The notes under the pieces were generated by a model. The model was not told where the DNA came from, did not search any database, and worked only from the letters and a program-made list of their open reading frames with translations. This document shows, piece after piece, positions 28,451-63,917 of a stretch of 64,000 bases of DNA. Position 1 is the stretch's first letter, and each line of letters begins with the position of its first letter. The position numbers were made by a program, and so were the translations under genes. This DNA is from Sphagnum compactum (lineage: Eukaryota): the NCBI GenBank assembly GCA_965153455.1, contig OZ234493.1:8918213-8982212 (forward strand), read 5' to 3'.

Positions 28451-30415
28451 GTTTGCACTAGGGTGCAATTATTGTTGAAATGAACTCATTTTGTGATTAT
28501 GTATGTAATAATCCTATGTCTCACTAAATCATAACTGTTAATAATCACATATGTGACTATGAAACAAATGGATTTAGATTGTAGTCATAGAGGCAAATTT
28601 AATTTATGACTACCTTGTGTTTGGATAAATAATTAATGAAATTCAACATACTCTACCAAGTCATGTTTTGCAACTGTTTTAACATATTTGATCAACTATA
28701 CATGGATAATTAGACCACATGTTGCATCAAGTTTGTGATTGCAATTGATTATCAAAGTTTAAAAAATAATATTAATGCTAGCATTGGTGGTAATTTACTT
28801 TTACCTTACCACCTAAATTGCATATTGGAAACTATCATAGCCTACCTATTAAACAAAAATAGTTAACTTAGCTTACATTTATGTATTGATAATGATTTAG
28901 CTTATCTGAGCCTTTTTAAGCCTACTAGATATGTTATGATATATAGGTTATCATAAAATAATAATTACGTTAGGATTTAAAATTAGGCAAGGATAAACTA
29001 TTATTAGTTATAATAAAAAGTTAATAGGCCATGCTAGTTTCTATAAATTAGTTGTCATTACATAAATAGGTAATAAGTTACATTAATTATTAGTTAGGTT
29101 TGGTAGACTAGGCATACAAATATGGCATTGTACATAATATAAATTACATTTATGTAAATTATATATATATATCATAATTTAAAAAAAATATATGTATTAA
29201 AAAAATCCACAAAATTATGAATTATATAAATTTATTTGATATGTTCTACTTTAAAATCTAATATTTCTAAATGATTATACACCATAAAAAATAAAATTAA
29301 TTAAAAATATTTACTAATGGATCATAAATCAATTATATCTATATATTAAATGTTTTTATATTAGTCATATTAGATATGAGGTATAAATTTAATTTAAGTA
29401 ATTTAATCTAATTCGAATAATAATTAATCAATATTAAAATGTGAACTAATTATCTGAAATTATAAATTTTATTCATTTTTTACACATGTAATATATATAT
29501 ATATACATATATAATATAAAATTTTATTTAAATTTATGAGTCAAGTTTAAAGTATAAATAAATTATATATTCCACATATCTTACATTTCTTTTTTAATTT
29601 AAAGTTAAAATATAAAAAAAAATTTATAATATATCATACCTTTAGCATTAAAATTTATTTCACTGCATAATATTTAATTTAATCACTTTGAATATTTAAA
29701 ATGGACTATATATCAAATATATTTCAAAAACGTAGTAAAGATTTTTATATTACCTATATGTATAATAATCAAAATCAAAATTTTATGTGTATGTTGTAGT
29801 TTATTATGTCCATTTGTAATCATATTAAATTATTAATAATCATTTTTGAATCATTGTAAAATAATTGTATGACCACATTGTTTTTGTAAGGACACATCAT
29901 TTTGTCCACGTCATTTTTTTAGTCATTTGAAACGGCTTTATCTTAAGTCACATTTTAAAATGATATTTTGAACATTCATGTTATTTTATCATCAATCATG
30001 GATGCTGTATGAATGAAAACTTGTAATGAAAAAAGAATGTCATCTTTTTATTACTACGTCATCATCTACTAGTTAAATGCACTATTGATATATGACTACA
30101 ATTTTTTTCACATAAGATTTGAAGTTATATCCTATGATTATAGTTAATTATGTAATTGTTTATAACATTTGGTCATTGATTTTTTGATTCTAAAAGACAA
30201 AATTCCTTCAAATGGTAAAAGAGTTGGCCCCCATCCTTGAGATCAAAATATCAACCATCACAAATGACATGGTGCAAGTCAACCATGATTTGTTGACCAA
30301 ATATTGGTTAGGCCATTTAATCTACATTTCATAGGTGTTTGCTTACCTAATTACTTAAACTAGGTTTTTAGCTTAGCCTAGGTGTGTCAACAATTCATAG
30401 GATGAAAAGAATGAA

Positions 30416-30455
<40 letters not shown>

Positions 30456-36219: not shown

Positions 36220-39200
36220 CTAATGATCGAAATTTTGAGGTATCATGTGTGCTAGGAGGACAACTCTTCATGCTAAAACTTGAGCACCAGACCAGAGAGG
36301 TGGCAAGAGGCAAGTACCAACAACCTTATGCTGAGGTTATATTTCTTTGTTTGGAGTTCATCATATGTTAGAATGCTCTCGTTGCAGATTCTAGATTACT
36401 TCAAATTGGAGTAATTTAAATGGAGGATAGTGAGTTTGCATTCTTTTCAGTTGTCCAATTCAAATCCCCTCAAATAGCTGTATAGAGCTTGTGCTTATTT
36501 GGAGATGAAGCCATTCTGGTTTTCTCTTTGATTGAGGCAAGCTGCATACACTGGAAGGTGATTTGGGTGATGTCTTTGTAGACTAGTCTGACAAACCCAC
36601 CTTTTGAATCCTCTACCTTGTCTTCAACAACTTTGTAGCTGAAATTAAGTTGTAGAGGTGTGTGAAGAGTCAAGGTTGAATTTTGATATTTTGGCAATGA
36701 TCCATCAATTTGGTCTGAACTTCTATCCCACTAGTGACAAAGTGGACAACTCATTGTCATTAGTTTTTGGACAATTTGCTTTTGCTATGAATGCTTGTGG
36801 TCATAACTTGAGTTTGAACCAGTTTTGTTTCGTTTGGTCTAGGTGTTGTGAGCATGAACAAACAATGAACATGTCCAAAATTATTGGAACATGATAGTAT
36901 TCCAAATGTAGTTCAAATGATTCTAGAATATTGAAACAATTCAAACGTTTCAAGAGTTGGCTGTTTTTCTTTTATTTTTGCTTTGATCCATTTGGTTGAT
37001 GAAGCCAATGGAGAGTATTGGTAGCTACTCAACACTATTCATCGTGAAGGTGACAATTTGAGATATAGTTGATGAAGTCAATGGGGAGTATTGATAACTA
37101 GTCACTACATTCCTTATCAGGGTGAAAAGTCTTTGAGTTATCATGACTTTCATTCATAGTTGTTTTGATGTGAGTTGATGTAATTGTTACCTTCATGAGG
37201 TTATAACATTATGACTACTTTCATGTGCCATGGTACTATTGGTTTCGCCAAAATTTATAGAATGTTTATCTTCAAAATGATATTCAAAGCTCCCTTTGAA
37301 AACTCAAGTTGAGCTCTTCAAGTTTTATGTTTAGGGAATAAAAGGTTCCCCCCTAGCTACTTGTAATGGGTGATAAAGTGGTTCATCCATCTTCATATTT
37401 TTCTAGAGTCATAGTTCCTCACAAATCAGGTTCTGTCTTTTCTCTTTTTGTTTTCCTTTTCTCCTTTTGTTTCTTTTGTTGTATGAACTTGTAATTGGGG
37501 AGCTTTTTAATTTTTTGAAAAAAAGGTATATATATTAGGTCCTCTTGGTCCTTGTTCAAATTTCTTGAGTTGTTGGTCAATCTATGTTTTTCTTCTTATT
37601 TTTTATGCGTTTTTGTTTCCCCCTTCTATGTTAGTTGTTGGTCGATATCATGGTTGAGTATTCCCATTACTTTCAAACTTAGGATGTAGGTTAATGGTCA
37701 AGTTGACCTCTACCCACTACTATGAGTTGATGAAGTCTAATGGGGAAGTGATAAATAAGTTGTTGGTAGACATGTTATTATTATTGTTGCTTGTCCTTGA
37801 ATAAGGTTAACAATTTTGTTCATGTTGTATGTTTTTCCCTTCTAGTTCATCCCATAGGCACTCAATGGAAAGCAAATTCCTCTGTGATTCATTCTTGGTT
37901 TTAGAAGTCCTTGTTTGGAAGTCTTTCTTTGACTTGAAGGAGTAGTTTTAACCTTGTTTGACTTTCTTAATTGTGAATATGGAGGATGTCTAGAAGCTAT
38001 CAAAGATGTTCAACTAAATAGATCTTTTCACCCCGCTACCTTAGTTCTTGTTGTGTTTACTTTGGTTTCGACTGACATAATGACTAGCAATATATCCAAC
38101 CACGATATGGTTATCGTTCTTGTGCAATCCTTCTCCCAATTTAAAATAATTTTGGCCATGTCATTTTTTTTAAAAGCAAACATAATGTATCCAAATAATT
38201 GTTAATAATGTGGTTGGATATATTGTTCAAGATGTAAGAGTTTTTAGTCATTGCCTTCTTTGCAGTCCTATCAAAGTTATATGAAATTACATGTTTGTAT
38301 TAATGAGGTTTGCACTTTGGAAGGTTGTTGCAAATGTAACGAAAATATTGTTAGATTTTGAAGGATTGTTAACAACAAATATTGAGTTTGATGAAGATGC
38401 ATTTGGCAAAACTTGTTGATCATGGTTATGTTGCATGATGACTAAATCCACTAAACTCAAATGAACTCCAAGTGAAATATTAAAACAATAATTTACCTTC
38501 TTGGTTAGAGTCCTAACTTATACTTGGTGGTTAAAACTAATATATAGTGCAAGTATTGGTTTGTGAACATACCAATTAATACTTATTGAATTTTTAAAAC
38601 CAACTTGATATTGACATTAGATATTTTTTTAGTTCTCATACAAGCTTAGAATTAGTATTAGATTTTTTAAAAAATTTAATATGAGGTTGTTTTCCATATT
38701 AATGTCTAAGGTTGGTTTTTTGATTGGTATTATGCCTAAAATGATTAGGGTACACATGATTTAGTTGAGTTAATTTGATTGTGAGAATAAAAAACATTTT
38801 ATATAATTTTAGTTTTTAAACAACACTTTTTATGAAAAAGATTATTAGAGTGTCAATTTTTATTTTAGGTAATACAATATGATGTGGAGCCCAAGGGGCA
38901 AGGAGATTCAAATCAAAAGGATTTGATGAAGGTATGGTGTAGACATTATTATTGTTGTGTTTCTATACGATAACATGTTGAATGAGTAATGCAATTAATA
39001 ACCATTTGGGTTTGATTGAACTTCGTTTGTAAGAAATCATGCAAATCACAAGGTTATTTATTTTATAGTTCAAAAAAATATGAAATTTTATAGTGGAAAG
39101 AAACTTCATTTAAGATGTGGTTTGTTGAATATTGCATTGAAAATAGTTGCAACCAAACTTTTTTTAAGTTTTGTCTGTCCTTAATTCCCAAGCTACTGGT

Positions 39201-42200
39201 AACATGAATCTTTTCTTTGGAATGTAGTTAGGAATACAATTTGACGTTGAATATATATTTATAAATGTAGAAAGTTATTAAGAAGAGGAATTTAGATTAT
39301 AAATTTCAATTATGATTTTCAAAGGTTTAATAATTTTTGTGGATTTGTTTAGAAATGATCTTACCATTTTTTTTGGTTTATTAAGAGGGTAATCAAATGC
39401 AAGAAACAATTATTATTGTGCACCCAATTGTATTAGCATGTTATGATTTATTTAATTGATGTTTTTTTTCCTTGATTCTAATTTATTCAAATGTATTGTT
39501 CAAACTCTAAAAGGACATCCTATTTTTCATCAACAACATTAATAAAATTATAACGTAAAAGTTTTAATTGTTTGATATTGTTATCCGAGTGTTTAGTTAC
39601 AACTATCATACGAATTGTTTCATTACCTTAATATCTTAGATTATTATTTTAATCATGTGTAACTTTTGCATTTTTCAACCATGGATGGCGAAGTAACATG
39701 GAGTAGTTGACATCCAAGACATTATTTTTCATAATAATGAAAATAACAATGTTTCAAGTACTACGAATATGATGTTTTTGTGATATTTGAATTATTATAT
39801 TGAAAATGTAAGGATTTAGTTTAAGGGTAGTCAACCTAATTTTTTCCTTAAGTCAGCAATAATAATGTTTACTTTAAACCTTCCATTCAACAACACATTG
39901 TCAATGAAACTTTACCCCACATGCACTTGTATTATAACCATGTGAAGATCTATGCTTATATAAACTATTATGGGCATGTTCCAAAAAAAGAATAGGTTTC
40001 CTAACATGGGCAATTTAACAAAAAATATTGTTTTATATTTGAAACAAATGAAAAGTTAGCCCATTATGATGGTATGCTTAGCTTTCCAAAACAATCTTCA
40101 ATTTCTTGTATAATATTAGAAAATTTCTTGTGATAGCATTTTTTCGTATAATTTCTGAAAGTTTCAATGCACTTTTATTTTCAATAATTCTCTTTTTAGT
40201 GAAAATAGTTCTTACAACTCCATTTTCGATAGTAAATTATATAAATAGTAAGGTATTTTTTTCTTAAAAATTTCTCTAAATTGTTTCAAATCTAAAAGGG
40301 TTCCTTTTATTGTAGTTTTTAATAGCAACTGAAATTATAGTTTTTGTTTTTGGTTATTACTATTAAAATCATGTTGACAATGATTTTTTTTTCGATTTTG
40401 CAATAAATTACTTTAAAAAAATATCTCTTTCGTTGCTTACCTATGTGAGTAGTCATGGATCTTACGGTTTAAATATATATCCATAAATGAAATAATAATA
40501 AATAGTTGGATTACCGTTACTATTTTGGTTTAATTTTTTTGTTTATTAGAAAGCTGATTCCTTTAGTCAGCTTTGTTATAACCTTATTCATTAAATTTTT
40601 ATTTTTTTTGAACTTACTGTTGAGATCCATTGTTTCTTAGGAACCCATTTCCATTTACATAAGGTCCATGTCACCATTAAGAAACCATTTTTGCTTTAAA
40701 GGAAAACGATTTCCCTAAGTTGTTTAGAAGGAGATTTTAAATTTTTGATTGAAATTTTATAGTTGGGTGTGAAAAATGTTATTGATACGCATTACCAAGT
40801 TCCATTTGGCCTATGAAGAAGATTCACCCAAATTTAATGGTTTGCCACCACGCAATGCAATCATTATGGCTTTAATTTTGATAAGAATAGAAAACTAATG
40901 TTGTTGATTAGATAAATTTAAATAGACTCAAATAGGATATTCATCAAAACAAGGACTATTTATCATAAACCATGTCGAACTAATAAACCTATTAAATTAA
41001 AAAAAATTGGTTCATACGCTAAAGAATAAGGTCTTACATTAGGAAGAATATTTTTAGTAAATGGTATTATTATAATATAATCAATGGAAATTTTTGTAAT
41101 CATTAGTGGTAAAAAACAAACAATGTGCAATCAAGTTCAATACCGCAAATGATAAACTAATGTGGTACAATTTTTGAATTAAAATTTGAAAGGAAATTGA
41201 GTGTGTATTTGAGATAAAAGTTGACAAAGGATTTGTAACTAACATTTGGCTTAACATGTAATGACAACTTCTTATTACATAACTTATTGCATGATCAAAA
41301 AGACAAATTAAGACAAAAAAGAAAACTTTGAAATTAAAAATAAGGGTTATTAGGAATGCATGTTAGAATTCATTTTCATCCACGAAATTCATCCTTGAGG
41401 ATTGACCTTTATACCCTTCATTAGAGTCATCATTTTCTTGAAATTGTCATAGGTCTTCCAATTACTTTTGGAATTGAAAATTTTCATTCTTTCAAACATG
41501 AGCTAAAATATTTTTATGGTACCAAAAAATCTTGGTTTTCTGGTAGGGTTCCAAATAGGTCCCCATGAAATTTTCCAAATCCATTATGACAACATTCCTT
41601 TTCAGTAAAAAATATTTAATATTTTTTCCAATTTTTTGGTTCTATTTTTTTAATAGCAACTTCCAATTCTGTGAAAAGGTAGCAACATTTAAATAATTCA
41701 TTTTTGGTCATTCGACTTTTTCCTAAACTCTAAAAGGTCCTTCTTGTGTGCTTTCCTACAAAACATGTTCCATTATATGTGGTAAAAGAATCTTAAACTT
41801 TTAAAATTTGGGACCAATTTTGAAAAGTTCTTTGAATTTTTAAAGTTTTACAATTTCATCTTTTTAGGGTATGAATTTTTTTTGAATGCGGTTCATAAGT
41901 TTTTATCCTTTTATTTTTTTTCCCATCAAAATCATTTTATTATATGAGTCATTTTTATGGTCCTTTGCAAATTTGACTCATTTTGATGCAACATGTGTTC
42001 ATTTTTGAATGTCCTAAAACAAACCTAAACTTAAAATTTTATCAAATGGAGTTTTGATTTGAATTCATTAGCATTAATATGAATGAACAAATAAGAATGT
42101 GCCATGATTGCCATAGTGTTAAATGATGAAACATAAATATTTCTTTAATTTTGACTAGTTTTGTTTATGGTCTAATGTCCTTTTGGCTTGTTGAATTGTG

Positions 42201-46800: not shown

Positions 46801-49800
46801 CATCTACTACAAGATAGTGTGTAAACCAGTGTAAAATGTCAAAAAGAGTGAATCACATCCATGACCAGTATTAGAAAAAGAAAAAGAGTACACTGGTGTA
46901 TGGATTACAAGGATTAAAGGTCATTTCAATCAAAAACTTTTAACTAATGCAAAGTAGCCAAAGACTAAACAGAGCTAATGGTGGTATCTCATACAGAAAA
47001 TGACTTACTGCAAAATCCTTAGGAGACATGAGCACATTGTGGGAAAGAAGGCTTTCATAAACATCACGTGCAGAATGGCCAACAGCCAACACTACTGCAT
47101 CTGCTTCCACCACACTAGAGATTCCCAGACAACCTGATGCTTCTGTAACACAACACGTTCTTATGCCCACAACTCGCTTGTCACGGACAATGAGGTCCTC
47201 CATCCTTGTTCCAAACATGATTTTCACCTGTCCAACCCACTCTTTCCATCAGCTGGATGTATACAACAGTTATATATCCAAAATATTGATTCTAGAATCA
47301 ACTGCCAAATTCAAAGGTGTTTGCAGAAAGTTCTGGATATAAGCTTCCCAGAATATCCCAAGCAAGAATAAGTGGACAAGAGGGGCAGAACAGAGGACAC
47401 TACATCTTACCCCCAAATTTTGCAGATGCTGGCGGAAGGCACAGAGTATGTGGATGAGGCGATCAGTTCCCACATGAGGTTTTCCATCAATCAAAATGTT
47501 GGAAGGGGCACCGAATTGGACTAGTGTTGCTAGCACCTGTGAAGACCCACTAACATATTAGTCTCCTCTGGTGTCTGTCCAATACAGCAGTAATTTGAAG
47601 GTGGCATGGGGACTCAGAGGTCAGTTGAAGGCGAAACCCATACAGACAACACCTTTCACAAAGCTTCTGTGACGTCCATTACAGGTAAATGATGCTCACA
47701 GTTTGCACACTGCCACCATTTTTCCCAATACGGGTTGTCAACTTGCCATCACTCCATGTCCCTGCTCCCCCCTGCAGCATTGTCCATTCTTTCAGTCCCA
47801 AACTGTTCCTATACATGGGAACCTGTCAATAAGGATACATGCGATTGCAGAGAGAAACTCCACAAAACCATGTCAGACACCTAAGAAAAGAAACAAACAT
47901 AACCTTGCGACCATCACTCACAAAGTATCAAACCGTCACCTTCATCATGAATAGCATTGACTACCTCCCATTACTCCCACTGACTTCATGAGTTTTCAAC
48001 ATCATCAGCTCCTGACAGTGGGTGTCAAAAACTACATAAACCTGGCTAAACATCAGTGATGGGAAAAATCTGCACCCGGAGTTTCTGTCACATTTCTGGA
48101 AGCAATGGGATGACTTAATCATTATACTGGCTTATCACTAAGAGGCATGTGATCTTTCAATAGTTTCAATTTTCTAATTTCTAAGAGAACGATTATGTGG
48201 TCCAACCTCCTCAGTGGTAGTAAGTGCTTGGTTGCTGGGAGGAGCGTACATGCAACCTCTTTCCTTGCCAGGCATACAGTCTCAAACTTTCTACAATTAA
48301 CATAATTAACGTTTTGGAATTGAAACCTTGCAAGGTTGCAACAAGGCCACTGACCAGCAGGTCTCACAGATTAGGGTTTAGGGTCTAAGTTGTAACATGA
48401 CAACTATCGTCAGCAGAATTATGAGTGAACCAAGACACAAATGATTATTGCATAGTGCATGCCAGGTCAGTTATCATGTAATTAGCTTTGATGTAACTCA
48501 TGCCAGGTACTGATTGAAATAAGGTAACAATCTGTGCACATGAAGTGGCATGTCATTGCTGGAAAGAGATTCAGACTCTGCAAAGAAACAAATATAGAGT
48601 TTCATTTACAAACCTCACCATAGCAAAGATTGCTTTCATGGTCAAGTATGTGCCGATTCATAAGTGCTCCAATATCACGTCCACGGGTCTCTACAGGTTG
48701 ACCCCTCTCCACCAGTGTAACCACCACACCACTCTCAGCCAATACAAGAGCAGCAAAGAGCCCTGCTGGTCCACTACCCACCACCACAACTCTTGGCCTC
48801 TCCTTTACATTTTTCCCACCAATAGTAGAACAAAAGCTCTTCGTGGCTACTCCAGGTTGCCTCAATTGTGAAATCAAGTCTAATGGTGCCCAAGGGATAT
48901 TGCAAAACTCCAACCTGCTGGGCTTGTTCCGTAGCTTTAACAGAAAATGCCTGCTTTCAGGCTTAGCCCTTAGACATTCTCCTACATCTAATTGCAGTGT
49001 ATAGACAAATTTTGGGTCCTGAACACATCAAATGAGCTTATTAGAATCAGCCGATTGAAAAACATTTCTGCAAATATAGTTGAAAGATTGGAGCATACAG
49101 CCCAATGTGCTCCAAACTTTGCAGAATTCCTTTTCAGAATTGCTTCTATTCTGTAACTAAGAATTGGGTTATGCCAATGGACAACATTTTCAGAATCTGT
49201 ATCACAAATTTCTGACTTCAGTAGTCACTTGTAAGCACACCATTAGGTCAAAAGGATTCTTTAGAGCAAAGATTTTACCTTGCGGGCATCAAAAGATTTG
49301 CGCACAACAGAGAGAGCAGTCCTGGGCAAAACTCCTGTCTGCATTCAACCGGAAACTATAATGAACTTTGTGACACACATTCTGTAACCATAGAGATTTC
49401 AATGAACTAACACTCTGCTACAGAAAACCAAAAGGCTAAATTTGGCTCTCTCCTTTGGCTGTCAATAGATAATCTTAAAAACCTGACCTAACTTTTCCTT
49501 TGTATTTGGAGGTTCCTTACCAAGCAGAAACTTTGTCGTAGATAATGAGGCACACCTTAGCATGCCTCCTTACCAAGCATAACCTTTGTTGTAGCTAATG
49601 AGGCACACGTTACCAAGCATAACCTTCTTGAACAATTTCAAATTAGGTCAGGTTTTTTAGTAGGTGAATGGCAGGTCCAGAGGGTATTCTGTTGTTTGAG
49701 GGCATGGGAACAAGGGCCTTGCTTACTTCAAACCAAGTAACACCACAGTGCTTAAGGGTTTAGGGTTAGTTGCCAATTTAGTGATCACCCTTTGCATATT

Positions 49801-50428
49801 CCTCTACTCGTGGAACTATGGAAAAGCTAACCTTGCAGCCCAGTGCTGCTGCAGAAGCTTCCAGCACTGCATCAGAAATGTCAAAATTGTCTTTGCCAAG
49901 GTCCAACTCCAAAGGCACTTCCAATCTGAAAATTTTCCAGTACCCATCTTTCAAGAATCTGGAACTCTTTCCAGCCAATGATGGACTTGTCCTATCCGGT
50001 TTTTGCTGTTTTCTCTCTGCAGACGCTTCCGAATGCTCGTCTTTCCTGACAAAATTACAACCCCTTTGTTTTTGTGAGCCCTTATTACTACCCATTTCTG
50101 CATACCTCCCTCTATCACTTGTCCTGAGCTCACTCGCCACTGTACTCACAATTCGAGTTTGCAATTGTCTTGCCCCACTAGGAGTACACTCCCTGTAGTA
50201 GTGCAATTCCCCAAACCGTCCTCCACTGTCGAGTCCACGCCTGAGTGAATCATGCGAAAGCTGGCAGAAAAATCCAGAACTCTGTGTATTATGGCACAGC
50301 CGATGATATCGCCTCTTCCTACTCCTCCTCCTCCTGTCTATTTGCTTTGTTCCAAGGATGTCAACCAGATGAACTTCACTATTGAAGGTGAGGAAAAAAG
50401 AAGCAGAAGAACAACAACGAACATCCAT
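43873..50428 (-). CDS. PDE327: Plastid-targeted FAD/NAD(P)-binding oxidoreductase, At4g30720/PDE327-like; about 13 exons
   Basis: Exons traced with GT-AG borders. Transit-like N-terminus, then VVRKSFDARK, DPKFVYT, VVVVGSGPAGLFAAL (GxGxxG), ERG, GEGGAGTWSDGKLTTRIG, GKPHVGTD, VLAVGHSARD, VGFRIEHPQ, YSFCMCPGG, NGMSFSKR..WANAALVV, LHGVETRTSSPVRI and GLYPIGEGAGYAGGIVSSAVDG. Confidence 0.9.
44120..44144. repeat. Interstitial plant telomere repeat (CCCTAAA)3 / telo-box in the last intron
   Basis: CTAAACCCTAAACCCTAAACCCTAA. Shorter TTTAGGG motifs occur near 48371 and 49755 in other introns of the same gene. Confidence 0.85.
49477..49657. repeat. Small inverted-repeat-bounded element (MITE-like) with internal tandem repeats, in intron 1 of the oxidoreductase gene
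   Basis: AAAAACCTGACCTAA (49477-49491) and TTAGGTCAGGTTTTT (49643-49657) form a perfect 15-bp IR. Inside, TTACCAAGCA occurs three times and TAATGAGGCACAC twice. No clear TSD. Confidence 0.55.
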
Positions 50429-50789
50429 TGCAGACTCAGAAGATACAGCCGCAACGTGAAGTTGTGCTACGTATCCTTCACATCATCCTTCCTGTCAACC
50501 AGCCGCTACAATACTCTACAACCAACACCAGCTGCCAGAGATATCTCAACACCACAACAGTAAAGTGGGGTTCAAGGGTCAGTATTCAAAAGTGTAGGCC
50601 GGGGTGCGAGCATTCCCAAACTAAGGGGCCAAGAATGTGCCCACTCATGAGCGTCAACCTACATGAAGTAGGTGTAAAAGGCTTCTTGTATAGGGGAATG
50701 AACCCCTTTGTGGGTCTTCGTGGCCCTTAAGGCCAGGAAATGGGTCCTCAGGTGCCATTCCCGGGGGGGATTTAAGGGCCGGCAATGGC

Positions 50790-52600
50790 AGCTGAGGCAG
50801 CTGCAGTGGAGCACAATTTGCCCATTGCATTAAGAAAGGGAGTTCTGGGAGTACTGATGTTGTGTTTGTGCCTGAGTACGAGAGCTTAAGGTGAGCATTA
50901 TGACACCATATAGCTGCTGCCAGGCTTTTTTCTATTTGACTCTCCAATTACCAATCTAGAGCTTAGGAGCAGTTTGAATCTAGCTCTCCATGGACTTTGA
51001 GTCTAGACTTTGTACTGAAGACTCTATAATCTATTAGATTTTCAGGATTTGGCTGGGCCCAAGCTCGAAGAAGCTCATTCTTTTACACACAAGAATCTGC
51101 TCAAAAGGTAATTTCCTCTTTGTCCTCCCAATTTGACACCTGATTGTGTGAACTATCACACCACAATTGTGATCCTGTCAAACCCTAATTTTGATGCAGC
51201 TCTTCCATGTACATGCAAATGGTCACACTACTTTCATTACTTGTTGGTGGGGGTACTGCTGTTATTCCTATAGAGGATGTAAGTTTTTGGCCTCAAATTT
51301 CTGGAAACATATCAATGCCAACATTTCACATGGTACACAGGATTTCCCACAATACACCAGATTTTGCTCCACATGCATAAAAAGGAAGCCAGAGGCAGAG
51401 TAGGTATCCAATCCTGTGGTTTATCCTTGGTGCCTGCAGTTTTAGCAGATCTTCAAGCATTGTTCCAGGCTACAGTGTTGGAAGCTAATGCAATGCCGGA
51501 GGCCCGTCATCAGATGATCTCAAATCCGTTTCAGAAGCACGAGCCAAATAAATCTGGGATAGTTGGAAAACCCACTGGAAGTGAGCTTGCAATTTTTAGT
51601 GACAATGGAGTAATTTAGAAGCCTGGAGTGGTCAGTGACGTTAGCATTCAAGGTCCAAATGTGACAAACGGCTATTGAAATAACTCTGATGCCGATAGGA
51701 CAGAAATATACTTTGGGTGGTTTCATACTGGTGACTGGGTTTTGGGGATGAGTAAGCTTATCTCACATTGCCTTGCTGCATCAGAGAGCTTGTTAATCAT
51801 GGAGGTAAGTGGGTAAGTATGAAGACAGAGGGGAATTATATATATTTGGAAGGATGACAAGTTATCTCAAGCTTGTGTCTCTCTTTGTATGTTGTTAATT
51901 GTACTGTAGTTGGTCAAGAAAACATGGTGATTATTACTTGGACAGTGGAAACTAATGGTTTTGCTCAGGAACTCCAGGTGAAGTGTTCCAATTTCATGGT
52001 GTAATGTGATAGTTACTTTCAGTAGCAGAGCAAGTTTGTGTTATTTGTTTTATTGAGTTTCCTTTGGAGCTCCAGATGCACATTTTGGTGAAGAAGTAAT
52101 TGTACCAACTTGCTGTGGACAATAGGCACTGGTTCCATGAGAAAGGCTAGGGATTAAAGATTCACATAGCGCTGCTCCCTACCTCTCTCTTCAGCATTGC
52201 TCTGTTGATCAAAATTGGCATGATGACATGTACGTCTCTCCCAATGTACTGGTTAATAGCCAATGCCAAGCAACTATTTGCCACAACTCTCAAGTTGCCC
52301 ATGATAATTGGTATTGAGCTTCAGCAAAAATCTGATTATGTGTACACTTGACTTGGCTTGGAAAGCAGAGTTGAGTTATATGATGCTAATGGATATCAAA
52401 CCCCTCTTTCTGGAGTCAGGTTAATGCAGCAATTGTACTGATCAAAGGTATAGCGGCCACATAAAAAGATGTACAAGAATTTTGCAGGAAAAATTTGGCA
52501 TGATTCAAGACATGTGTATATTCTTTGCTGACGAACTGTCCCACATGGCCAGTGGAAAACTTCAGTGTTGCATTCTTGCAGAACATTTTGTCAACGATAT
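50790..52600 (+). pseudogene. AAE3: Decayed oxalate-CoA ligase / oxalyl-CoA synthetase (acyl-activating enzyme 3)
   Basis: Colinear fragments with stops and frameshifts: LFHVH (51200), KFLASNFWK, TWYTGFPTIHQILL (51328), IQSCGLSLVPAVLADLQALFQATVLEANAMPEARHQMISNP, GIVGKPTGSELAI, VSIQGPNVTNGY*NN, FGWFHTGD, IRELVNHGG|intron (51805-51977), VSFGAPDAHFGEE|intron (52096-52419), VNAAIV, FCRKNLA*FK and DELSHMASGKLQCCILAEHF (to 52589). These track the plant AAE3 sequence as I recall it. The 5' boundary is approximate. Confidence 0.88.
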
Positions 52601-52685
52601 GTCTAAGGAGTCAAGCTCAGGATTACAAAATTTCCTGTGTTGTGCAGAATTTTTTGTTGGTATGCAGGGTTGGTCTAGTGAATAA

Positions 52686-53523
52686 ATCTGCTTCATTGCT
52701 TCATCATGAGCAATCAGCTGGGTGCTTCGGGCTATTTAGCAGGAAAGCCTGGTTTGCTATCCACAGCATCAGATACTGGCTGTCTACAGGGGGTTGCAGG
52801 GATAAGTAGTGCAATGATCAATACATGGCCCTTCATGTTAGTCGCAGGGTCAAGTGTGCAGACTGACATTGGGAAAGGGGATTTCAAGGAGCTTGATCAG
52901 ATGGGGATTGTAAAGCCCTCATTCTGGAAACGCACACAAGATTTCTGAGATTCCTGGAGTTATTCACAAGCATAGCATCAGCAGTTGCTGGCTGACCTAG
53001 AGGTACTTACGTCAAGATATCTTCAGATGTTCTACACAAAGATGTGACAGAGATGAGGCAAAACTGTTGCTTGTGTGTGTAGAGCCATCAATTTTGATCT
53101 AGGCTAGAGGGATGGCTCTGAAGGAGCTTTTGGTTGGACACAAGGAAATGACAGAAGCAGTTGCTCTTGAAATGCTAAGGAGCCTTGACAGTTTCCGTAA
53201 GGGGGCCATGAACTCACGTGCTTGAAAAGTGATCACAACCAGATGTATGGACACTGTAGGTTATACCCAGTTTCATGCTTTTGCAGATTATATTGACTGA
53301 AAAATGTCTCTGATTTTGAATGCTGAATATCATTTGCATTTCAATGAGAGCCTGGTCAATTGATATTTTGAGACTCATTACCTGTCTTGTTCCTGAACAT
53401 TTTTGGCTTGCATGCTGCTCACAATCTGGATTGAGTGAGGAAGCCCAGAAGCCAGCTGTGATCAACATTACAGTTAACCCATCTGATGGCTCTGAAAGTG
53501 TCTGAATTGGACATCCAAACTAG
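52686..53523 (+). pseudogene. HACL: Decayed, internally deleted TPP-dependent 2-hydroxyacyl-CoA lyase / oxalyl-CoA decarboxylase
   Basis: ICFIA/HHEQSAG, GYLAGKPGLLSTASDTGCLQGVAGISSAMINTWPFMLVAGSS..DIGKGDFKELDQ, ISEIPGVI, AVAG*PRGTYVKISSDVLHK and FRKGA..SRA. It then jumps to the family C-terminus EAQKPAVINITVNPSDGSESV*IGHPN*. I did not find the TPP-binding GD(S/G) region or the first ~45 residues. Confidence 0.88.
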
Positions 53524-56500
53524 GAAATATTTTGTTATGTTGCTAGTTGCCATTGATTCTGTTCTGCCGGCAGATTTGGGAAAAACTGACTTCAGTTTCT
53601 CACATGACCTGACCTCATTGTGTGAAGGCGTTTAGATCAGGGAGCTAAATGCTCTTTTGAAAAAGCTGTGGGACAAAAATGACTGCTCACTTCAGGTGGG
53701 CTGACACCTAATACATTGTTGCAGGAATTCCAGAACTTCTCTATTTAAGGATGTTCTAAATGTGATGGTCTGATCATGAAGCTGACACTATATGAGCTCA
53801 TCTGTGTCAGCCTGAGGTGATGAAATAATATTGCAATGGTATGACCCTGGAGACTGGCTATACATGCTCACACTAACCTCATCTCTGTATGGTTGAGTTG
53901 ATGGAATGATGGAAAACTGGGGGGAGTTACCAGAAACATATTTTGTTGCCAATCATAGTTCTTCTGTGGATGTGATATGGTTCTGTGATAATGATCATCC
54001 CAAACATTTGCTTTTTTGTAGTGTTACAAATCACATGTGAGCAGAAAAGTCTTATGGCAAATAATGTTACACTTAACTTGCCTCTCCCTGTCCTCCATTT
54101 CAACACTCACGGACATTTATTTGAAGCCATAGCTGACTTTGCTGAGTTGTAGTACCTTGCCACTGCAAAGGTCCACTCTTGACAGACTGTAAATTGTGCT
54201 TCCATATAGATGAGCATTCTTTGCATCCTCATAAGTACTGTTGCAGCAATCGGGCATGAAGATGGGATTCCCTGCATGTGCATGCACCACCGAATTGAAC
54301 CTTCAGCTGTTGAATATCTAATTATTGGAGTGGGGACAATCTCCTTATATGCTTCAACCTTTTAGCATATTGGACTCATCTTGTTCTGTATTTGAATATT
54401 TCAACTACCCAATTCTCCACTTTCTCAATCATTCATTTGTTGAATTGGTGTTGCAACTTAAATGATTCCCTCGACAATAATTGTCCACCCTTTGAGCTTT
54501 GGAGCATAGGCTATGTTTATCTTTGCGTGTCAACGGACACTTTTTTTCCTCTTAACAGCTTGTGGAGACCAATTAACTACACAGAATTGAACATCAGTAG
54601 AACAATCATAGTTCAAGTAGGTCCAGAATAGGAACTTTAGAATCTCCTTTTTGAATTGGTGCTCTGCCCTTTTACAAGGCTGAAATGTTGGGAGGCCATC
54701 CATTCTATGACTATTCCCAGCTGAAAGCTCTTATTGCCAGAATTCTCATGGGAACAACCATTGCAGTCACTCATCCAGAATTTTGAGGGAATAACATGTC
54801 ATTTTTTAGAGTTCTTCATATTGCATAAATCTCATCCAAGGTCATCATCAATTACATGTCTGTATCTCGGTATCCATGATTTAACATAATAGTTCAATGA
54901 CATTGTCAAGGATCATGAATTGATCATGAACAATCTTCCTGTTTTTTCTAAAAATGTAATCTTCCCCTTTGAGAAAGGTCAAATCCTTCTTATAGAAAAA
55001 AGGTGAGAAAATCCTTTATGTAAGATAATGGGCACACACACCTGACTATTGTGCTGTGCACCTACAAGTTTTGGGCTTGCCTGCAAGACTTACCTGACAC
55101 AATGATCAAGGGCTTTGCTCATTTTCTGAACGGTTTCCAGTACAATAATGATGATGGAGCAAATACTCTGGCTCTTCTTTATTGGGTAGGGTAAGGCCCT
55201 AGGGTGAAGGCAGTAGGGGCAAGGCTCAACTAGGCTCAAGCACCGATATGTTTGTTTCTAGTATTCTTAATTGTGCACTTAATTGGACTGATGCCACTTT
55301 TTTCTGAACCAAAGTTTTGACGGGATGGGATCCACGAACACTCACGCCACTCGTCTATCTGCAGAGGGTGAGCGTTTGGCGTCTTGCATCCAAATAATGG
55401 ACTCCTGCAATGCAGTGCGGGTGATGATATGGAGAACTCTTTGGGTCCCACTCATTACCCAAAATGTTCATCGTAATTATTTCAACACGATTTCGACACG
55501 GAATAGTCCTCCGCCGGCCCGGTCCCACGTAATAATTCCACCACCAAGGGATTCGGGAGAGGATAGATCTATCGCCACCGGGTTGGAAGCGCCATCATCC
55601 TCAATTATTTTCTTTCCTAGCGTCAGTCATTTCACCGACTTTCCTGATCACTTGGAGCAGTAATTGCTAGATGTCCCCGCCCATCATCTCTTATCCAAGA
55701 GATATCAAAAATCCTACCAACCAATTCCTAGCTGCGCTTCCCTTGTGAGAATTATACCAGCGGTAACACTCTAGCTCGAAGTAATCCATGAAAAATTTGC
55801 AAACAGTTGTAAAGAAGCTGTAGTAGTAGATCGAGGAGAGAGACGTCGGAGAACGTTAAACAACCCAATTAATGGAACTTTGCGGGGTGACAGAAAAAGG
55901 CCTTGGTCGCCCCTGCACAGTTCTGCTTACAGGGTTTGACTAAAAATTTGTAAAAGTGAGAAATAAATACAAATTTTGATGATGAATTGTTAATTCAAGC
56001 AGAAAGTAGACTGTGAAATTCTTGCAGAACACATCACAACGTCCACCGCGCGGTTCTGCGCAAAACGATGCACGGCACAAAACGACAAGACTTGCAAAGT
56101 TCGATGGGGAAGGGGTGTTTAACGTCCCTCAGAGATCAGAGAGACCAGCTACTTCTGATTGGTATCTTTCCACTCCAATCCATTTCATGGGTTTTTTTCC
56201 ACGCACTGGCATGTAGCCGAAATTTCGGTGTCCAGACATGTCTGCAGGTAGACTGCCATTGTCTGACTGATATGGGGTTGGTCAGGAAGTAAGTTATATA
56301 GAAAACGATTCTGGTCTCATGAGTCATGGCCCATGCAGGAGATGCATGGTGGAGGAGCAAAAATTTATGGCCGTGACGTGATGGGTGAAGACTTCAAGAC
56401 TTTTACATGATCAGTTGAATATGGTCAGAAGTATGATTCCAATCTCACGTAGATATATAGAGCGGGAATCGATCACAGCTGGATTGGTACCAGTGAAGAT

Positions 56501-57660
56501 ATATTACTGAGCATCGACTCAAGTCCTTGACACCAGCCGCGTGTGGACATTAGGATGTCAGACCTAGATGTTCGGCATGGCCGGGGCTAGTGCATGATGA
56601 TCTCAAGCACCGCGTAGTCTCAAGTGTCATGTGCTGACGGGATCTGTATGGAGGACCTAAAAGTGAAAGACATCATGAGTACCACTAGATACTGTAATCA
56701 TTAATCCTAGTCTTTCTGTAAGCTGCGAAAGCATTGGAATCTAATCTGTAATCTGCTGGTCTAGAACTTTCGGATTTTGGTTGGCCCAGTACAGAAGACT
56801 TGTAGATGTACTACTTGTCTGGGATTTCTCTCAAATGCTTCTTCCCCTTTTGTGCATTCATTCCAGCACTTATTGGATGGAGGCGCTGCATGCATGCGCC
56901 GCTGGGTGGTGAGATGTCCGTTTGTAGTGGTATTCTGTTCCATGAGACTCTTCTTCTACTTCGTCCTCTTGGATTGAAAGCACTTTCGCCCCTTACTTTT
57001 CATGATCGTTATTTGCTGCTTCTATCCTACTACGTCACTCTGTTGGAGTTTCCTTTTGCATCCCTTAGAACACTCTAGCTCTTCTTGTTTCTCTGCCGAC
57101 GTTGAAGAGAGGCAGCCTCTAGCGACTTTTAGAGAAACCACGCTTGTAGAACCCGCAATTATGCAGCTCGCAAGTCTCCCATCAAAGGTAGCTTACAACC
57201 TCCAGCAACCCTACTTCAATCTTTGTTTTTTGCAACCTATGAGTACCTGCTTTCTATGGGTTTCTTTCGCCCGTGCATTGCTTCTTGACAATAGGACACA
57301 TGATGATCTGCAGTTAATGGTCGTATGCACCTCGTAGAGCGGAGCCATCATATACCCAGTCCCTAGTCCCCAGTCTTATAAACGAATTCCCTCCTGATCT
57401 GCAGGCCCAATTGCACCTGATGGAAGGTGCAATTGCCATTTCAATGCACTCTAGAGTCTACAGCCAATTGTTGCAGACACAACAATATTTGAGGATTTGC
57501 ACTGTGAAACAGGCAGCTCTCCAACACAAATTGCACCAATATTAGATACGAGGGTTGGACTGAATGCATGTAGCGGTTGCCTGAAAAAAGAACTAAGCAA
57601 CTTCACAACGGTCCACAAGCTAGCTAGGCATCTGGAGATCATTTCTTGGTTCTGAAGATC

Positions 57661-60600
57661 ATGGCGCTGTACTCATGCCACAAGAGAATAATCATTACCG
57701 CAATGCTCGTATTGGGAATTTTGACAATTCCCAAACTGGGACATGCAAGCTTCGAAGGCGATGTGCTTATCAACAATATCAGACCTGCACTAGATCCATC
57801 TGGTCAGCTTCTTCAGTCGTGGACTCGAGGAGGCAATCCTTGTTCAGGCACATTCAAAGGAGTGACATGTAATTCAGGTATTGTAATCTGGTTTCTTCGA
57901 GACCAATAGCTGATTTAGGATCTCGACACTTCGCTGAACACTTGAATGTAGAGGGAAATTCATTGCGAAAACGTGTTGATAGATTCACGGTTCCTAGTTT
58001 GATTCACGATGAGCCAGCTTGATGCTTGTGACCGGAGATTGTTGTAAGTTCATGTCCTGGCAAGAATATGTACTGATGGGCACTTTCTTCTGGAGTTACC
58101 AGGGGGCAGTGTCGCGAATATCTCGTTGCAAAGATGCGGCTTATCAGGCTCTATTCCTTCACAATTCGGCCTCCTTTCGAGCTTGCAAGGTACATCCTAT
58201 TAATGCACCCTCACATAGCTTAATTAGTTGTGTTGTGATCTTCTTGTTGCCGGAGGTGGACATCTTATTCATCATATGTCGTGTTGGTGTTGATGCCTTC
58301 TGCAGTGCTGGAGATTTGCTGCAACAACTTAACTGGGAGCATCCCGGAATCACTCGGCAGCCTGCATCTGACGTCCCTTGATGTTCATGACAACTCTCTC
58401 TCCGGTCCGGTACCAACAGGTGAGTAAATGTGAAGATGATCAAAGAGTGCACACTGCACAAGCTGCCTAATCAGATACACATTTGTTTCATGGCGATTGT
58501 TATAGCCTTTGCGAATTGTGATCCTAAGAGCATGTGCTCCCCCAGCTGTGCTCAGTATGTGACCCTGCACAAAAAATTTTGGATGAACAAAAAGTCGACA
58601 TATGGCGGTTTGGCTCAGTAAAATGGTTTTGGCCCAGCATTTTTGCACACTTTTCTGAGGCTGGTAAAAGGCACAGCAAAGCCTAATAGCTGCTAAAGAA
58701 GAGTGTAGTGAATGTGATATGACTGTTGCTCCCTGTTTCTCATTGGCCAATCGTAATGATTGCTCCAGGTGGTTTGCTATTAGTAGTCTCCCACCGATTT
58801 GCGATCCCAGCTTTAGTTCTATGGGTGGGGTTTAAAAAAAAAGTACAATAGTATACTTGGATGTGAGAAATACTTTTGTAGGGTCACATACTGAACACCG
58901 ATGGAGATGGTCTAAAAAGGCAGGCCACAGACTGTACTCTATGTGAAGCAAATGTGAACTGAAATGGAGAACAAAGTTTTTAAGTGCCCAGTTGAATTTG
59001 GTTTGCTCATAGTGGAATATTGTGCACCTTTGTTCAGGATTGATCCATGCAGCTGGTAGCTTCAACTATGGCAACAATAGTGGGCTCTGCAGCAGCGCCG
59101 GGAATGACACAATTCTTCCGAGAATACCTGTCTGTGAGTCTATAATCCAAGGCAACGTGAAATCCTTGTCCAGCTTGAATATGCTGAAGATGGTTGCAAG
59201 TATTTGCATGGCAGTTTTCATTGCCATGTTGGGAAGCACAATCGTGATCTTGTTCTTTGTTTGGGTCCGATCAAGAAGAAGACCCCGCATTAGTGACGGC
59301 TCAGAAACCTATAGCATCCCCAAAGAGGACACGTCCCAAGAATGTGAGACCGAATTGAAGGTTGCTGAGACTAGCAGCAGTTCCAACAGATTTTTCAGGA
59401 GCTTTCGAAGCACACGCGGTAGCTATGGATCAACTTTACAAGGCAGCTCCTGCGGTGGAAGTATGTCGGATCACCAGCTAGCGAGGGCGCTTGCAGCATC
59501 GTCGTTTGCATCATCAGATCAGGAGAGCCCAATACCACCTAGTCCGTCAGAATTTCGGTTATGGATTTCGCTCAACGAGCTGGAGATTGCCACAAATTAT
59601 TTCTCCCAGATGAATCTTCTTCGAAAATCCGCGCACTCGGCAGTCTACAAAGGAACGCTGCCATCTGATGGTTCCGCAGTTGCTGTCAAATGCGTATATA
59701 ATACACGGTTTTGGTTTGGGAAGAAAGACCTGCGGTTTGTAATCGAAGCTTTGACACATATCAGCCATGAGAACGTGGTCCAGCTCAAGGGCTTTTGCGT
59801 AACCAAAGGTGGATCTGAATGCTTTCTGGTCTACCCTTTTGTGGCTGGTGGCACTCTTGAGCAGCGTCTCCATGGAAATGTCTCTCAAGAAAAGTTCCTC
59901 GATTGGGCAATGAGGGTGAAAATCATGGGCGATGTTGCAAAAGGTATGTATTTATGTATTTTGTTCTATCATGCGTCTCTCATCAAATGGAAGAATTAGT
60001 TAATTGCAAAAATGTAGCCAAACCCAATCTACGTAATCTTTTAAAAAAAGTGATGCATGCTTGTCTTTCTTTGAACCTACCTCTTCCAAGCCCAACTATC
60101 TCACTCCTTTGCCCTACTACATGCCCCGCGTACATGGATATGAAACAGGCAAAAAAACATTGTGCTTGTAACCAAGTGCAAAATTAGAAAAGAATTGTTT
60201 TATCACCAAATTTCTTCAAGGGAATTGTGAATGTAGGAAAACCCAATATTATCAGGTGCCCTCTGAAAAGATATTGCCATAGAGTGGGAGAACATTGACA
60301 AGCATTTTACTGGGAAAGTGCCATTTGTAAACCAGCCCAGTTCATGTTTCTTTTGCAGGGCTTCAGTACTTGCATGACGGTGGGAAGCAAGCAATTGTTC
60401 ATCAAAACTTGTGGGCAGGAAACATACTACTTTCAGACAAAGATGGAATGGCTCTACTATCAGATTATGGCTTGAATGACATCATAGCAGAAGAAGACAC
60501 ATACTCCAGACAAAAACTATTGGCATCATTAGGGTATTTGGCACCAGAGTACGGGTACATGGCACGCCTAAATGACAAATCTGAGGTTTACTCATTCGGA

Positions 60601-60876
60601 GCACTCTCTCTTGAACTACTAACAGGCAGAAGACCTGTTTTTGTTGATGGAAAAAACTGCTCGAGTTTCATCAGCACATATACTTGGGTTAAGACATTGT
60701 TGCAGTCAACTGGAAACATCAGTGAGGTCATAGATCCAAGGTTAGGATCACTGTATCCAGCTACCAAGGCAGCAGGGCTCCTTAACATTGCTCTTTCATG
60801 TATGGCGGAGAGTCCATTCGATAGGCCAACTATGGGGAATGTAGTCGAAAAGTTAAATGCGTGGGATGGACACTAA
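57661..60876 (+). CDS. LRR receptor-like kinase, LRR-IV-like, predicted pseudokinase; 5 exons
   Basis: Exons 57661-57877, 58103-58189, 58306-58419, 59038-59943 and 60359-60876. Signal peptide, LRRNT (LDPSGQLLQSWTRGGNPCSGTFKGVTCN), LRRs (LSGSIP, NNLTGSIPESLG, NSLSGPVP), Cys pair, TM (ICMAVFIAMLGSTIVILFFVWV). Kinase domain with VAVK, HENVVQLKGFC, ECFLVY, VHQNLWAGNIL, DYG and GYLAPEY. Confidence 0.92.
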
Positions 60877-62610: not shown

Positions 62611-63917
62611 TCACCATCGTCGAAGCCCCCGGGCTACCATAGGATCTGATGGACATTCCACGGCCACATGCCCACGGCCCCCACAGTTGTTGCAAATAGT
62701 CACCTGTAATTGGCAGTTGAGATTAATCCCTGATTATGTTGAACAACAGGTCTGATTCCATCCCTCACGCTGCCTATGTCTAAGATCAGATGTAACCCTA
62801 TTAACAGTCAGCTTCAAAGGACCTGACAGGGTAAAAGGTACAGATATGATAATGTGAAGCCCACTAAATAGAGCTACATACCTGAAGACAATCCTTGCTT
62901 TTGTGACCCGGTTGATGGCAGTTATGGCACACCATCTCAATGAAGCTTGGCACAACAGATCTTGGAGCAACAACAAGCTGAGGACAATCCCGAGCAATAT
63001 GGCCGGGTTGGCTGCACCCATTGCACACAGGGCTATTCACACAGTCCCGAGCTAAGTGTCCTGACTGTCTACAGTTGTTGCAAGCCTTCTCATTGGGACA
63101 GTCCACAGCAAGGTGTCCAGGTCGGTAGCAGTTGTTGCAGAGACGTGCCTTCGGAATCCCTACTTCCTGAGCTGCACAACCCTTTGCAATGTGTCCAGGC
63201 TTTCCACAGTTGTTGCAAATTGGCTCACTGCGGCACTCACTTGCAATGTGGCCGGCCTTCTTGCAGTTGCGACACAGTGGCTCCATTGGGCAAGCAGCAG
63301 CAATATGACTGTCCCAGAAACACCAAAGACAAGAGGAATGTGAACAGATAAACTCTATGCCTCAAAATTTTACTCTAATCGGTAAATCTCTGTGTGGTTA
63401 TGCTTCAATTGGAGGTCCTCTCCACTGAACCTGCACAAAGCTAACAGATTACAGTTGTGACCCTGCCTCTATATTTGACCCTTCATATGATGCAGCAGTT
63501 TCTTACCAACATCACATCCATGAGGATGGGGACTGTTTGCCCTTAACAAAGTTAAAGAAGCATTTTAAAGGGAATTTATGGGGAACACATGGCAACAGCT
63601 CCTCAAATACAAAATAGGAAACATGAGCTGCTAACTCACCCTGAAACACCACAATTGTTACAGACTGATGCATTGGGACAGTCACGGGCAAAATGGCCTG
63701 CTCGCCTGCAGTTATTGCACAGCTCAGCTGGAGCTCTGGAAATGATCACACATATCAGAGTTAGTTCCTGACCTAGCCATTAAAGAAATAGGTTAATACC
63801 AACCAATTGACCTGTAGGAATAACTTACAAAGTCCTTGCTAAACTGACCAGCACAACCAGTGACACAAGTGTCACAAATGCTTCAGGTACTGAAGCCTGC
63901 TGAATACTGTCCTCCAT
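62611..63917 (-). CDS. Zinc-knuckle (9x CX2CX4HX4C) nucleic-acid-binding protein, GIS2/CNBP-like; 5' end uncertain or beyond the window
   Basis: Exons at about 63735-63640, 63308-62882 and 62703-62611 encode nine CCHC knuckles and end ECPSDPMVARGLRRW*. An upstream exon with ATG at 63917 can splice in phase, but the real first exon may lie outside the window. Confidence 0.88.

Follow-up and report, generated by a model that had tools for sequence, protein, structure and literature searches.

A decayed AAE3-HACL locus in Sphagnum compactum as a probable dead duplicate of a ligase-decarboxylase locus annotated as fused

Introduction

We analyzed a 64,000-nt stretch of the Sphagnum compactum genome (GenBank assembly GCA_965153455.1, contig OZ234493.1, positions 8,918,213 to 8,982,212 of the forward strand; hereafter the window, numbered from its first letter), in which 50785-53523 (+) holds decayed sequence of AAE3, an oxalate-CoA ligase, and then, on the same strand, decayed sequence of an oxalyl-CoA decarboxylase/2-hydroxyacyl-CoA lyase (OXC/HACL). 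The route from oxalate through oxalyl-CoA to formyl-CoA has been worked out in seed plants, with separate enzymes, according to two studies (PMC8004701, PMC9090294). A first-pass annotation, made from the sequence alone, had read the locus as a dead genomic duplicate of a bifunctional fusion of the two enzymes, and our analysis lends support to that proposal. Specifically, we think it probable (about 0.82) that the locus is a dead, unprocessed (DNA-level) duplicate of a Sphagnum-lineage AAE3-HACL/OXC locus that is annotated as fused in Sphagnum fallax.

Results

The locus holds remnants of an oxalate-CoA ligase followed by remnants of an oxalyl-CoA decarboxylase

Protein-like sequence of both enzymes is scattered over all three frames of 50785-53523 (+), in a region that is eukaryotic in character, with spliced genes and about 42-45% GC. 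When nine pieces of the window were scanned with Pfam, two gave matches to AMP-binding and TPP_enzyme_N, six gave no match, and one gave an irrelevant weak match (DUF6371, E 0.29). The ligase piece (51283-51816, with stops written as X) scored above the cut-off for AMP-binding (PF00501; E 1.8e-8; 34 bits, cut-off 29.9), and the HACL piece (52682-52948) fell 0.6 bits under the 26.8 cut-off for TPP_enzyme_N (E 7.1e-6; 26.2 bits). In a search of the PDB, the best solved relative of the ligase part was the oxalate-CoA ligase 5ie0 (E 7.3e-39), and the top four matches were all oxalate-CoA ligases (7.3e-39 to 1.2e-23), compared to 2.5e-6 for the next match, a feruloyl/fatty-acyl ligase and the best of any other specificity. 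By this measure, the ligase part resembles oxalate-CoA ligases more than those of any other specificity. The best solved relative of the HACL piece was the oxalyl-CoA decarboxylase 2c31 (E 7.7e-13).

An intact homolog in Sphagnum is annotated as one protein in one species and as two in others

Compared with longer proteins, the HACL piece alone gave five matches at E <= 0.001 among 51 candidates, including S. fallax BDL97_09G066300 (hereafter P0004), which is annotated as a single protein of 1102 aa. The parent predicted in the first-pass annotation, a bifunctional ligase-decarboxylase of about 1100 aa with AMP-binding and TPP_enzyme_N/M/C domains in one open reading frame (ORF), thus has an annotated counterpart in Sphagnum. 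Pfam assigned to P0004 all of these domains and AMP-binding_C as well: AMP-binding (residues 11-377), AMP-binding_C (428-503), TPP_enzyme_N (538-652), TPP_enzyme_M (736-864) and TPP_enzyme_C (937-1085). Residues 4-515 match the oxalate-CoA ligase 5ie0 from end to end (E 1.3e-208), and residues 535-1094 match solved chains of the OXC/HACL family (E 1.3e-159). P0004 passes the NCBIfam oxalyl-CoA decarboxylase model NF006721 (641.6 bits, cut-off 557), and scores below the cut-offs of TIGR03254 (606.8 vs 739.4) and of the HACL equivalog NF058623 (259 vs 600). Since NF006721 alone is passed, the call of OXC versus HACL substrate for the plant/algal clade rests on one model together with published plant work.

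In the annotations of S. jensenii and S. balticum, the intact locus is split into a 522-aa ligase (P0339) and a 581-aa HACL (P0002). P0339 ends in KESTSG followed by a stop, P0002 starts with MPEDINANKK, and P0004 joins KESTS directly to EDINANKK; a further model, P0003, carries 27 unrelated residues ahead of PEDINANKK (an open frame of at least 84 nt). Comparison of these models shows what appears to be non-coding sequence in the intact locus exactly at the linker. On whether the Sphagnum parent yields one mRNA and one polypeptide, the annotations therefore disagree, with P0004 predicted as fused, and P0339 and P0002 predicted as split.

The ligase part retains three introns and carries disabling lesions

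We mapped the copy against P0004. With P0004 as the query, tblastn of the whole window gave significant matches only within 51173-53520, in protein order and on one strand. Searches with P0339 and with P0005 (a short S. balticum record considered below) extended recognizable AAE3 sequence back to 50785 and, together with our own alignment, delimited the first exon fragment (50785-50890, +; about residues 113-150 of the 1102-aa protein), which has one frameshift. Intron 1 is kept (50891-51045, +; 155 nt; cttaag/GTGAGC...TTTCAG/gat) and is followed by a large exon with the AMP-binding core (51046-51804, +; about residues 151-420). This exon has several frameshifts, small deletions (one within the P-loop motif) and three in-frame stops in the alignment, two of which we placed at 51616-51618 and 51676-51678; nonetheless, one tblastn match in it (51298-51735) retains 58.7% identity to the intact protein over 150 residues. 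Intron 2 (51805-51968, +; 164 nt; GTAAGT...GCTCAG) precedes a short exon (51969-52095, +; about residues 421-455) in which the 5' half is degraded and the 3' end, VSFGAPDAHFGEE(V), is nearly intact (13 of 14 residues identical to the intact protein in 52057-52098); farther 5' only VLLS is recognizable. An alternative placement of residues 421-442 at 51819-51873, inside intron 2, was rejected; the exon at 51969-52095 was preferred, with VLLS and VSFGAPDAHFGEEV its only recognizable parts. After intron 3 (52096-52419, +; 324 nt; GTAATT...AGTCAG), the last AAE3 exon (52420-52620, +) encodes AMP-binding_C, the C-terminal AEHF and a Sphagnum-specific linker, VNDMSKESSS. Two in-frame stops and one frameshift interrupt this exon, in which 44 of 68 residues are identical to P0004 456-523 in our alignment. 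These three GT..AG interruptions bear out the earlier description of the AAE3 part as intron-bearing, and the Phe of EHF ends exactly at 52589, as had been stated.

The lesions are numerous and the 5' end was not recovered. A frameshift-tolerant alignment of P0004 to 50300-53700 gave nine in-frame stops and about 24 frameshifts, counts that come from a lenient aligner of our own and include weak blocks, of which those upstream of 50742 and at 53281-53433 are untrustworthy. AAE3 residues 1-110 had no tblastn high-scoring segment pair (HSP) in the window. Weak N-terminal AAE3 blocks at 50302-50741 (9/28, 5/10, 4/7 and 2/3 identical) were rejected, since there was no tblastn match there; moreover, they overlap with an open frame of 234 aa at 49781-50482 (-). 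The catalytic motif HTSGTTSRPKG of P0004 appears in the window as LLHT..RICSKG, with a deletion. With its stops, frameshifts, broken motif and missing N-terminus, the ligase part is evidently a relic and not a working member of its family.

Intron 1 opens with VSIMTPY in translation, where P0339 reads VSSMSSY (4/7 identical) and P0004 reads DLAGPKPVD. If P0339 is taken as running into the intron of the intact gene, then intron 1 of the window is homologous to that of the parent, as we infer from this 4/7 match at an anchored position. Introns that are kept in combination with disabling lesions point to an unprocessed (duplicated) pseudogene.

The HACL part is internally deleted and ends at its native stop

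The HACL sequence begins with ICFIA at 52686, immediately after a TAA at 52683-52685, both exactly as described previously. Its N-terminal domain and the start of its middle domain (52686-53228, +; about residues 574-764) have frameshifts and in-frame stops, with no intron-sized interruption, and tblastn found 71% identity over 66 residues at 52721-52918. The next segment (53229-53421, +) is a poorly alignable remnant, with weak scattered blocks in our own alignment and no tblastn HSP, in which about 290 residues of the parent have been lost, comprising most of the middle domain and the thiamine diphosphate (ThDP)-binding C domain. In the alignment, residues from about 780 to 1067, including the ThDP-binding domain (PF02775), are deleted or unalignable, and no C domain was recognized. 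The last 35 HACL residues and the native TAG stop (53521-53523) are present at 53422-53523 (+), with one in-frame stop (57% identity over 35 residues by tblastn, 53422-53520); the stop is preceded by GHPN in the window and by GHRN in the intact protein.

A shared linker and equal divergence tie both halves to the Sphagnum locus

The sequence after EHF proved to be informative when we compared it with the intact linker, as the first-pass annotation had suggested: VNDMSKESSS in the window aligns with LKDTSKESTS, with six of ten residues identical. The spacer that had been described as 95 bp is thus in part the parent's own linker. Likewise, over the last 35 residues of P0339, which ends KDTSKESTSG, 23 are identical in the window, the final G included. 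The linkers of liverworts and algae are quite unlike the Sphagnum linker in sequence, and by its linker the window copy can therefore be assigned to the Sphagnum lineage.

Over solid alignment blocks, identity to Sphagnum is 60% in each half (168/278 in the ligase half, 110/182 in the HACL half), compared to 52% and 49%, respectively, to Marchantia, with every other row lower. This equal divergence fits a single duplication of a single locus. In a quick maximum likelihood tree of the HACL half with 30 rows, the pseudogene and the two Sphagnum rows form one group at an SH-aLRT (Shimodaira-Hasegawa-like approximate likelihood ratio test) support of 100. The window copy is thus like P0004 in domain order, linker, 60% identity in both halves and tree group. 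The two differ in that P0004 has an intact ORF with all five Pfam domains, whereas the window copy is disrupted by stops and frameshifts and lacks roughly 110 residues at its N-terminus, 40 at the junction and 290 of the HACL part.

Two other records show the same junction. P0001 is an ORF of 183 aa, from a contig of 2546 nt, that crosses it without a break; P0005, 156 aa from S. balticum, joins AAE3 and HACL pieces. Both share the junction and lesions of the window, at 71-92% identity to its translations, and their agreement rules out an assembly chimera. They do not look like real proteins, since out-of-frame stretches join scraps of ligase and HACL, as in annotation artifacts; they are an ORF and a gene model placed on other copies or orthologs of this pseudogene.

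The junction has collapsed

The exon with the linker extends to 52620, where its last residue is the G that also ends P0339, and the next 65 nt (52621-52685, +) form a collapsed junction from which about 40 N-terminal HACL residues are gone (residues 524-563 in our alignment), plus whatever linker intron the parent contained. A deletion near the junction had been deduced earlier from the missing HACL N-terminus, and the alignment agrees. Within this segment, 52621-52647 (27 nt) ends in a pyrimidine-rich run and CAG and may be a collapsed remnant of the linker intron, and 52648-52685 (38 nt) may hold remnants of FGVVGIP...SSCVTEG. We weighed three alignments of 52621-52685: a collapsed intron ending in CAG/AA, toward which we lean, remnants of AFAKTGIE, and remnants of SSCVTEG; the two alternatives to the intron are about as good.

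The earlier case for a fusion had leaned on two features of this junction. One was that only about 95 bp separate the domains; the spacer measures 96 bp, in good agreement, but the argument that this is too short for untranslated regions and a promoter fails, because deletions occurred at the junction. The other was the unbroken frame across the junction, which is present, but which has a one-in-three chance of occurring in a pseudogene so rich in frameshifts and is weak evidence by itself. Moreover, because the spacer may hold a collapsed linker intron, an unbroken frame over 96 bp is itself no proof of a fused ORF. The strong evidence for an origin from a fusion comes instead from homologs.

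Fused ligase-decarboxylase proteins are widespread in green algae and liverworts

We searched proteins of 606-1929 aa with the junction region of P0004 (residues 400-700), obtained 670 matches at E <= 0.001 among 8000 scored candidates, and examined the best 120. BLAST of each half found both halves in 59 of these 120 (42 nearly full length, 17 partial), with the ligase ahead of the HACL in 58 and the reverse order in one (P0056). The fused proteins come from liverworts (Marchantia paleacea, Calypogeia fissa), streptophyte algae (Spirogloea, Mesotaenium, five Closterium strains, Chlorokybus) and chlorophytes (Trebouxia, Coccomyxa, Chlorella, Micractinium, Chlamydomonas eustigma, Polytomella, Chloropicon, Ostreobium), as well as Galdieria and Chromera. 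Transcript-derived ORFs are among them, such as P0009, a Trinity ORF labeled complete. Several fused ORFs of about 1100 aa lie on contigs of 3.4-3.8 kb (e.g., P0048, 1095 aa on 3422 nt), which leave no space for introns, and thus in those organisms both halves are one uninterrupted ORF. A representative search with P0004 returned mostly multi-module adenylation proteins; among them were fused representatives, such as P0026, aligned over 16-1101 in a single stretch, P0016, P0063 and P0079.

The statement that the enzymes are separate genes in angiosperms held up, in that the HACLs of named vascular plants (Selaginella, Diphasiastrum, Adiantum, Taxus and many angiosperms) are stand-alone proteins of about 565-640 aa. 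In the 30-row HACL tree, the sister group of Sphagnum consists of five HACLs that look stand-alone (SH-aLRT 96), and the fused liverworts branch next to these (88). If these five are truly separate genes, the fusion has been undone at least twice.

Klebsormidium nitens P0069 (618 aa), named as a pyruvate decarboxylase family/HACL protein, begins with a ligase tail, MPRTATGKIQRR, and probably represents a fused gene whose model is truncated. P0089 (1142 aa) has adenylation, carrier-protein (PF00550) and TPP domains in one chain, a different architecture, and is distant, at 39% and 29% identity to the two halves of P0004.

Ordinary genes flank the copy

Pfam was run on 50 of the 54 ORFs of at least 100 aa in the window, and seven of the 50 had any match: a P5A-ATPase fragment, an SRA-PreSET-SET protein, two FAD-oxidoreductase exons (-), two kinase exons and a protein with six CCHC knuckles. 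Rfam gave no match at gathering scores in 49000-58000. The copy sits between ordinary genes, with its 5' end adjoining the start region of a minus-strand neighbor. This neighbor has FAD/NAD-binding oxidoreductase exons at 46943-49027 (-), including a Rossmann GxGxxG exon (48605-49027), and the 234-aa open frame at 49781-50482 (-), which has no Pfam match, may be its first exon; its region also contains a tandem pair of 52-nt units, 87% alike (49514-49618). Downstream of the copy is a receptor-like kinase gene (57628-60873, +) with kinase exons at 59013-59996 and 60331-60873 and an N-terminal exon (57628-57909) that by eye resembles a leucine-rich-repeat cap. Farther away, a single 642-aa open frame at 34291-36216 (+) with SAD/SRA (E 3.3e-51), Pre-SET and SET domains is apparently an intronless SUVH-type histone methyltransferase gene, and a 165-aa open frame at 62867-63361 (-) has six CCHC zinc knuckles (E 5.3e-31). 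Very AT-rich segments (26001-32000 and 38001-42000; 22-29% GC) lie between gene-rich blocks of 39-48% GC.

Discussion

We propose that 50785-53523 is what remains of a second copy of the Sphagnum AAE3-HACL/OXC locus. The layout of the copy fits that of a fused protein, with ligase and then decarboxylase on one strand, a short linker and no gene between them. In the parent, the ligase domain would convert oxalate, ATP and CoA to oxalyl-CoA, and a linker of about 20 residues would lead into a ThDP-dependent oxalyl-CoA decarboxylase domain that yields formyl-CoA and CO2. We suppose that the parent has an old fused architecture, common to green algae, liverworts and Galdieria, and that the duplication took place within the Sphagnum lineage, after its split from the liverworts and from the stand-alone HACL group. 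The copy kept the introns and linker of its parent; its 5' end, the first 40 or so HACL residues and about 290 further HACL residues are gone, and it has gathered stops and frameshifts that presumably leave it with no function as a protein.

Several points weigh against this reading or some part of it. The HACL piece falls short of the Pfam cut-off for TPP_enzyme_N, the lesion counts come from a lenient aligner, and the homology of the introns rests on protein read-throughs. The branch of the pseudogene in the HACL tree is long (1.14), with 32% of its columns filled, and we rely only on its placement with Sphagnum. Two annotations split the intact locus that a third presents as fused. Finally, although one might expect the ligase site of a fused enzyme to pass its oxalyl-CoA on to the decarboxylase site, such substrate channeling is pure conjecture on our part.

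The split models bear on an alternative in which the Sphagnum parent, no longer fused, consists of two closely spaced tandem genes, a ligase that has its own stop and an HACL that has its own ATG. The window would then hold a dead pair with its spacer deleted, and homology guidance would have merged the two genes into the 1102-aa S. fallax model. The stop of P0339, one codon past the proposed splice donor, and the ATG of P0002, two codons ahead of the proposed acceptor, are as this alternative would have them, as are the five sister HACLs that look stand-alone (e.g., P0272, 569 aa on a 2152-nt contig). In contrast, fusion is seen in the two named liverwort models and in those of streptophyte algae, with a linker similar in length and make-up, and the Sphagnum frames join through a GT/AG-compatible phase that yields just that linker; the unrelated open frame of at least 84 nt before the acceptor in P0003 fits an intron as well, without proving one. 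We thus consider a tandem pair distinctly unlikely. The first-pass annotation had itself offered a two-gene cluster joined by a deletion as its second option, which for Sphagnum itself is weakened but keeps some probability.

Mechanisms of another kind were rejected based on the introns, the repeats, the equal divergence and the shared junction. A processed pseudogene, that is, a retrocopy of a spliced fused mRNA, could account for the lack of an intron-sized interruption in the junction and the first 190 or so HACL residues, but three canonical introns are kept in the AAE3 part, no poly(A) tail is visible after 53523, and there are no flanking direct repeats of at least 20 nt, a length above that of the short target-site duplications, which were not searched for; we judge a retrocopy very improbable. 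Even harder to credit is a chimera, captured by a transposon (Pack-MULE, Helitron or similar) or assembled artificially from two unrelated pseudogenes. The copy is truncated and internally deleted, as a captured one might be; nevertheless, 49500-57600 has no inverted repeat pairs and only two small direct-repeat families, none of the 50 ORFs scanned by Pfam has a transposase or reverse-transcriptase domain, and the two halves are alike in their divergence at 60% identity, retain the parent's linker and share their junction with two other records. Thus, the duplicate of the Sphagnum AAE3-HACL/OXC locus remains our preferred explanation.

The disagreement among the intact models also raises the idea, tentative and on balance unlikely, that in the intact Sphagnum locus we see a gene part-way through fission. 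The fusion would then be the ancestral state of the green lineage, lost on land on two or more occasions. A linker intron would set a stop one codon after its donor (KESTSG in P0339) and an ATG two codons before its acceptor (MPEDINANKK in P0002), such that splicing would give the ancestral 1102-aa enzyme, and a ligase and a decarboxylase would be made separately upon intron retention or from an internal start. Fixation of the separate state would then be apparent in the stand-alone sister group of Sphagnum and, as an independent case, among vascular plants.

As a pseudogene, the copy is unremarkable; what makes it of interest is the architecture of its parent, which is public as sequence yet seems to have gone undiscussed. 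Fused sequences are already in the databases, mostly named "2-hydroxyacyl-CoA lyase", and we know of no family name for natural AAE3-HACL fused proteins of about 1100 aa. We found no description of a natural ligase-decarboxylase fusion in the main text of open-access articles. In their available portions, PMC9090294 makes no mention of fusion, algae, moss or a bifunctional enzyme, every "fusion" in PMC8004701 is a tag or reporter, and PMC4921024 does not mention oxalate, 2-hydroxyacyl or formyl-CoA.

The single-polypeptide form of the two-step pathway is widespread (green algae, Galdieria, liverworts, Sphagnum), and its distribution would mark one or more gene fissions in land-plant evolution. 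The fused proteins are ready-made candidates for a one-protein catalyst from oxalate to formyl-CoA. There is an annotation problem as well, in that records disagree on the intact Sphagnum locus, one showing it as fused and others as split, and scraps of the pseudogene (P0005) have been deposited as proteins.

P0056, an ORF of 1127 aa from an MMETSP transcript, has the same two enzymes in one polypeptide as P0004, but in reversed order, with the HACL at 15-547 and the ligase at 600-1108. This suggests that it was fused independently and that the pairing arose more than once. Fusions in both orders are comparative evidence that the plant "HACL" partners AAE3 in vivo. The seed-plant oxalate-CoA ligases (PDB 5ie0, 6qjz; AAE3 in PMC8004701), which are the best solved relatives of the ligase parts of both the window and P0004, stand alone at 514-521 aa and end about where the Sphagnum linker starts. 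Similarly, the best solved relatives of the HACL piece of the window and of P0004 535-1102 are OXC/HACL proteins (PDB 2c31, 2q27, 8vzd, 6xn8; AtOXC in PMC8004701), and these are stand-alone proteins of 550-583 aa, unlike the fused P0004.

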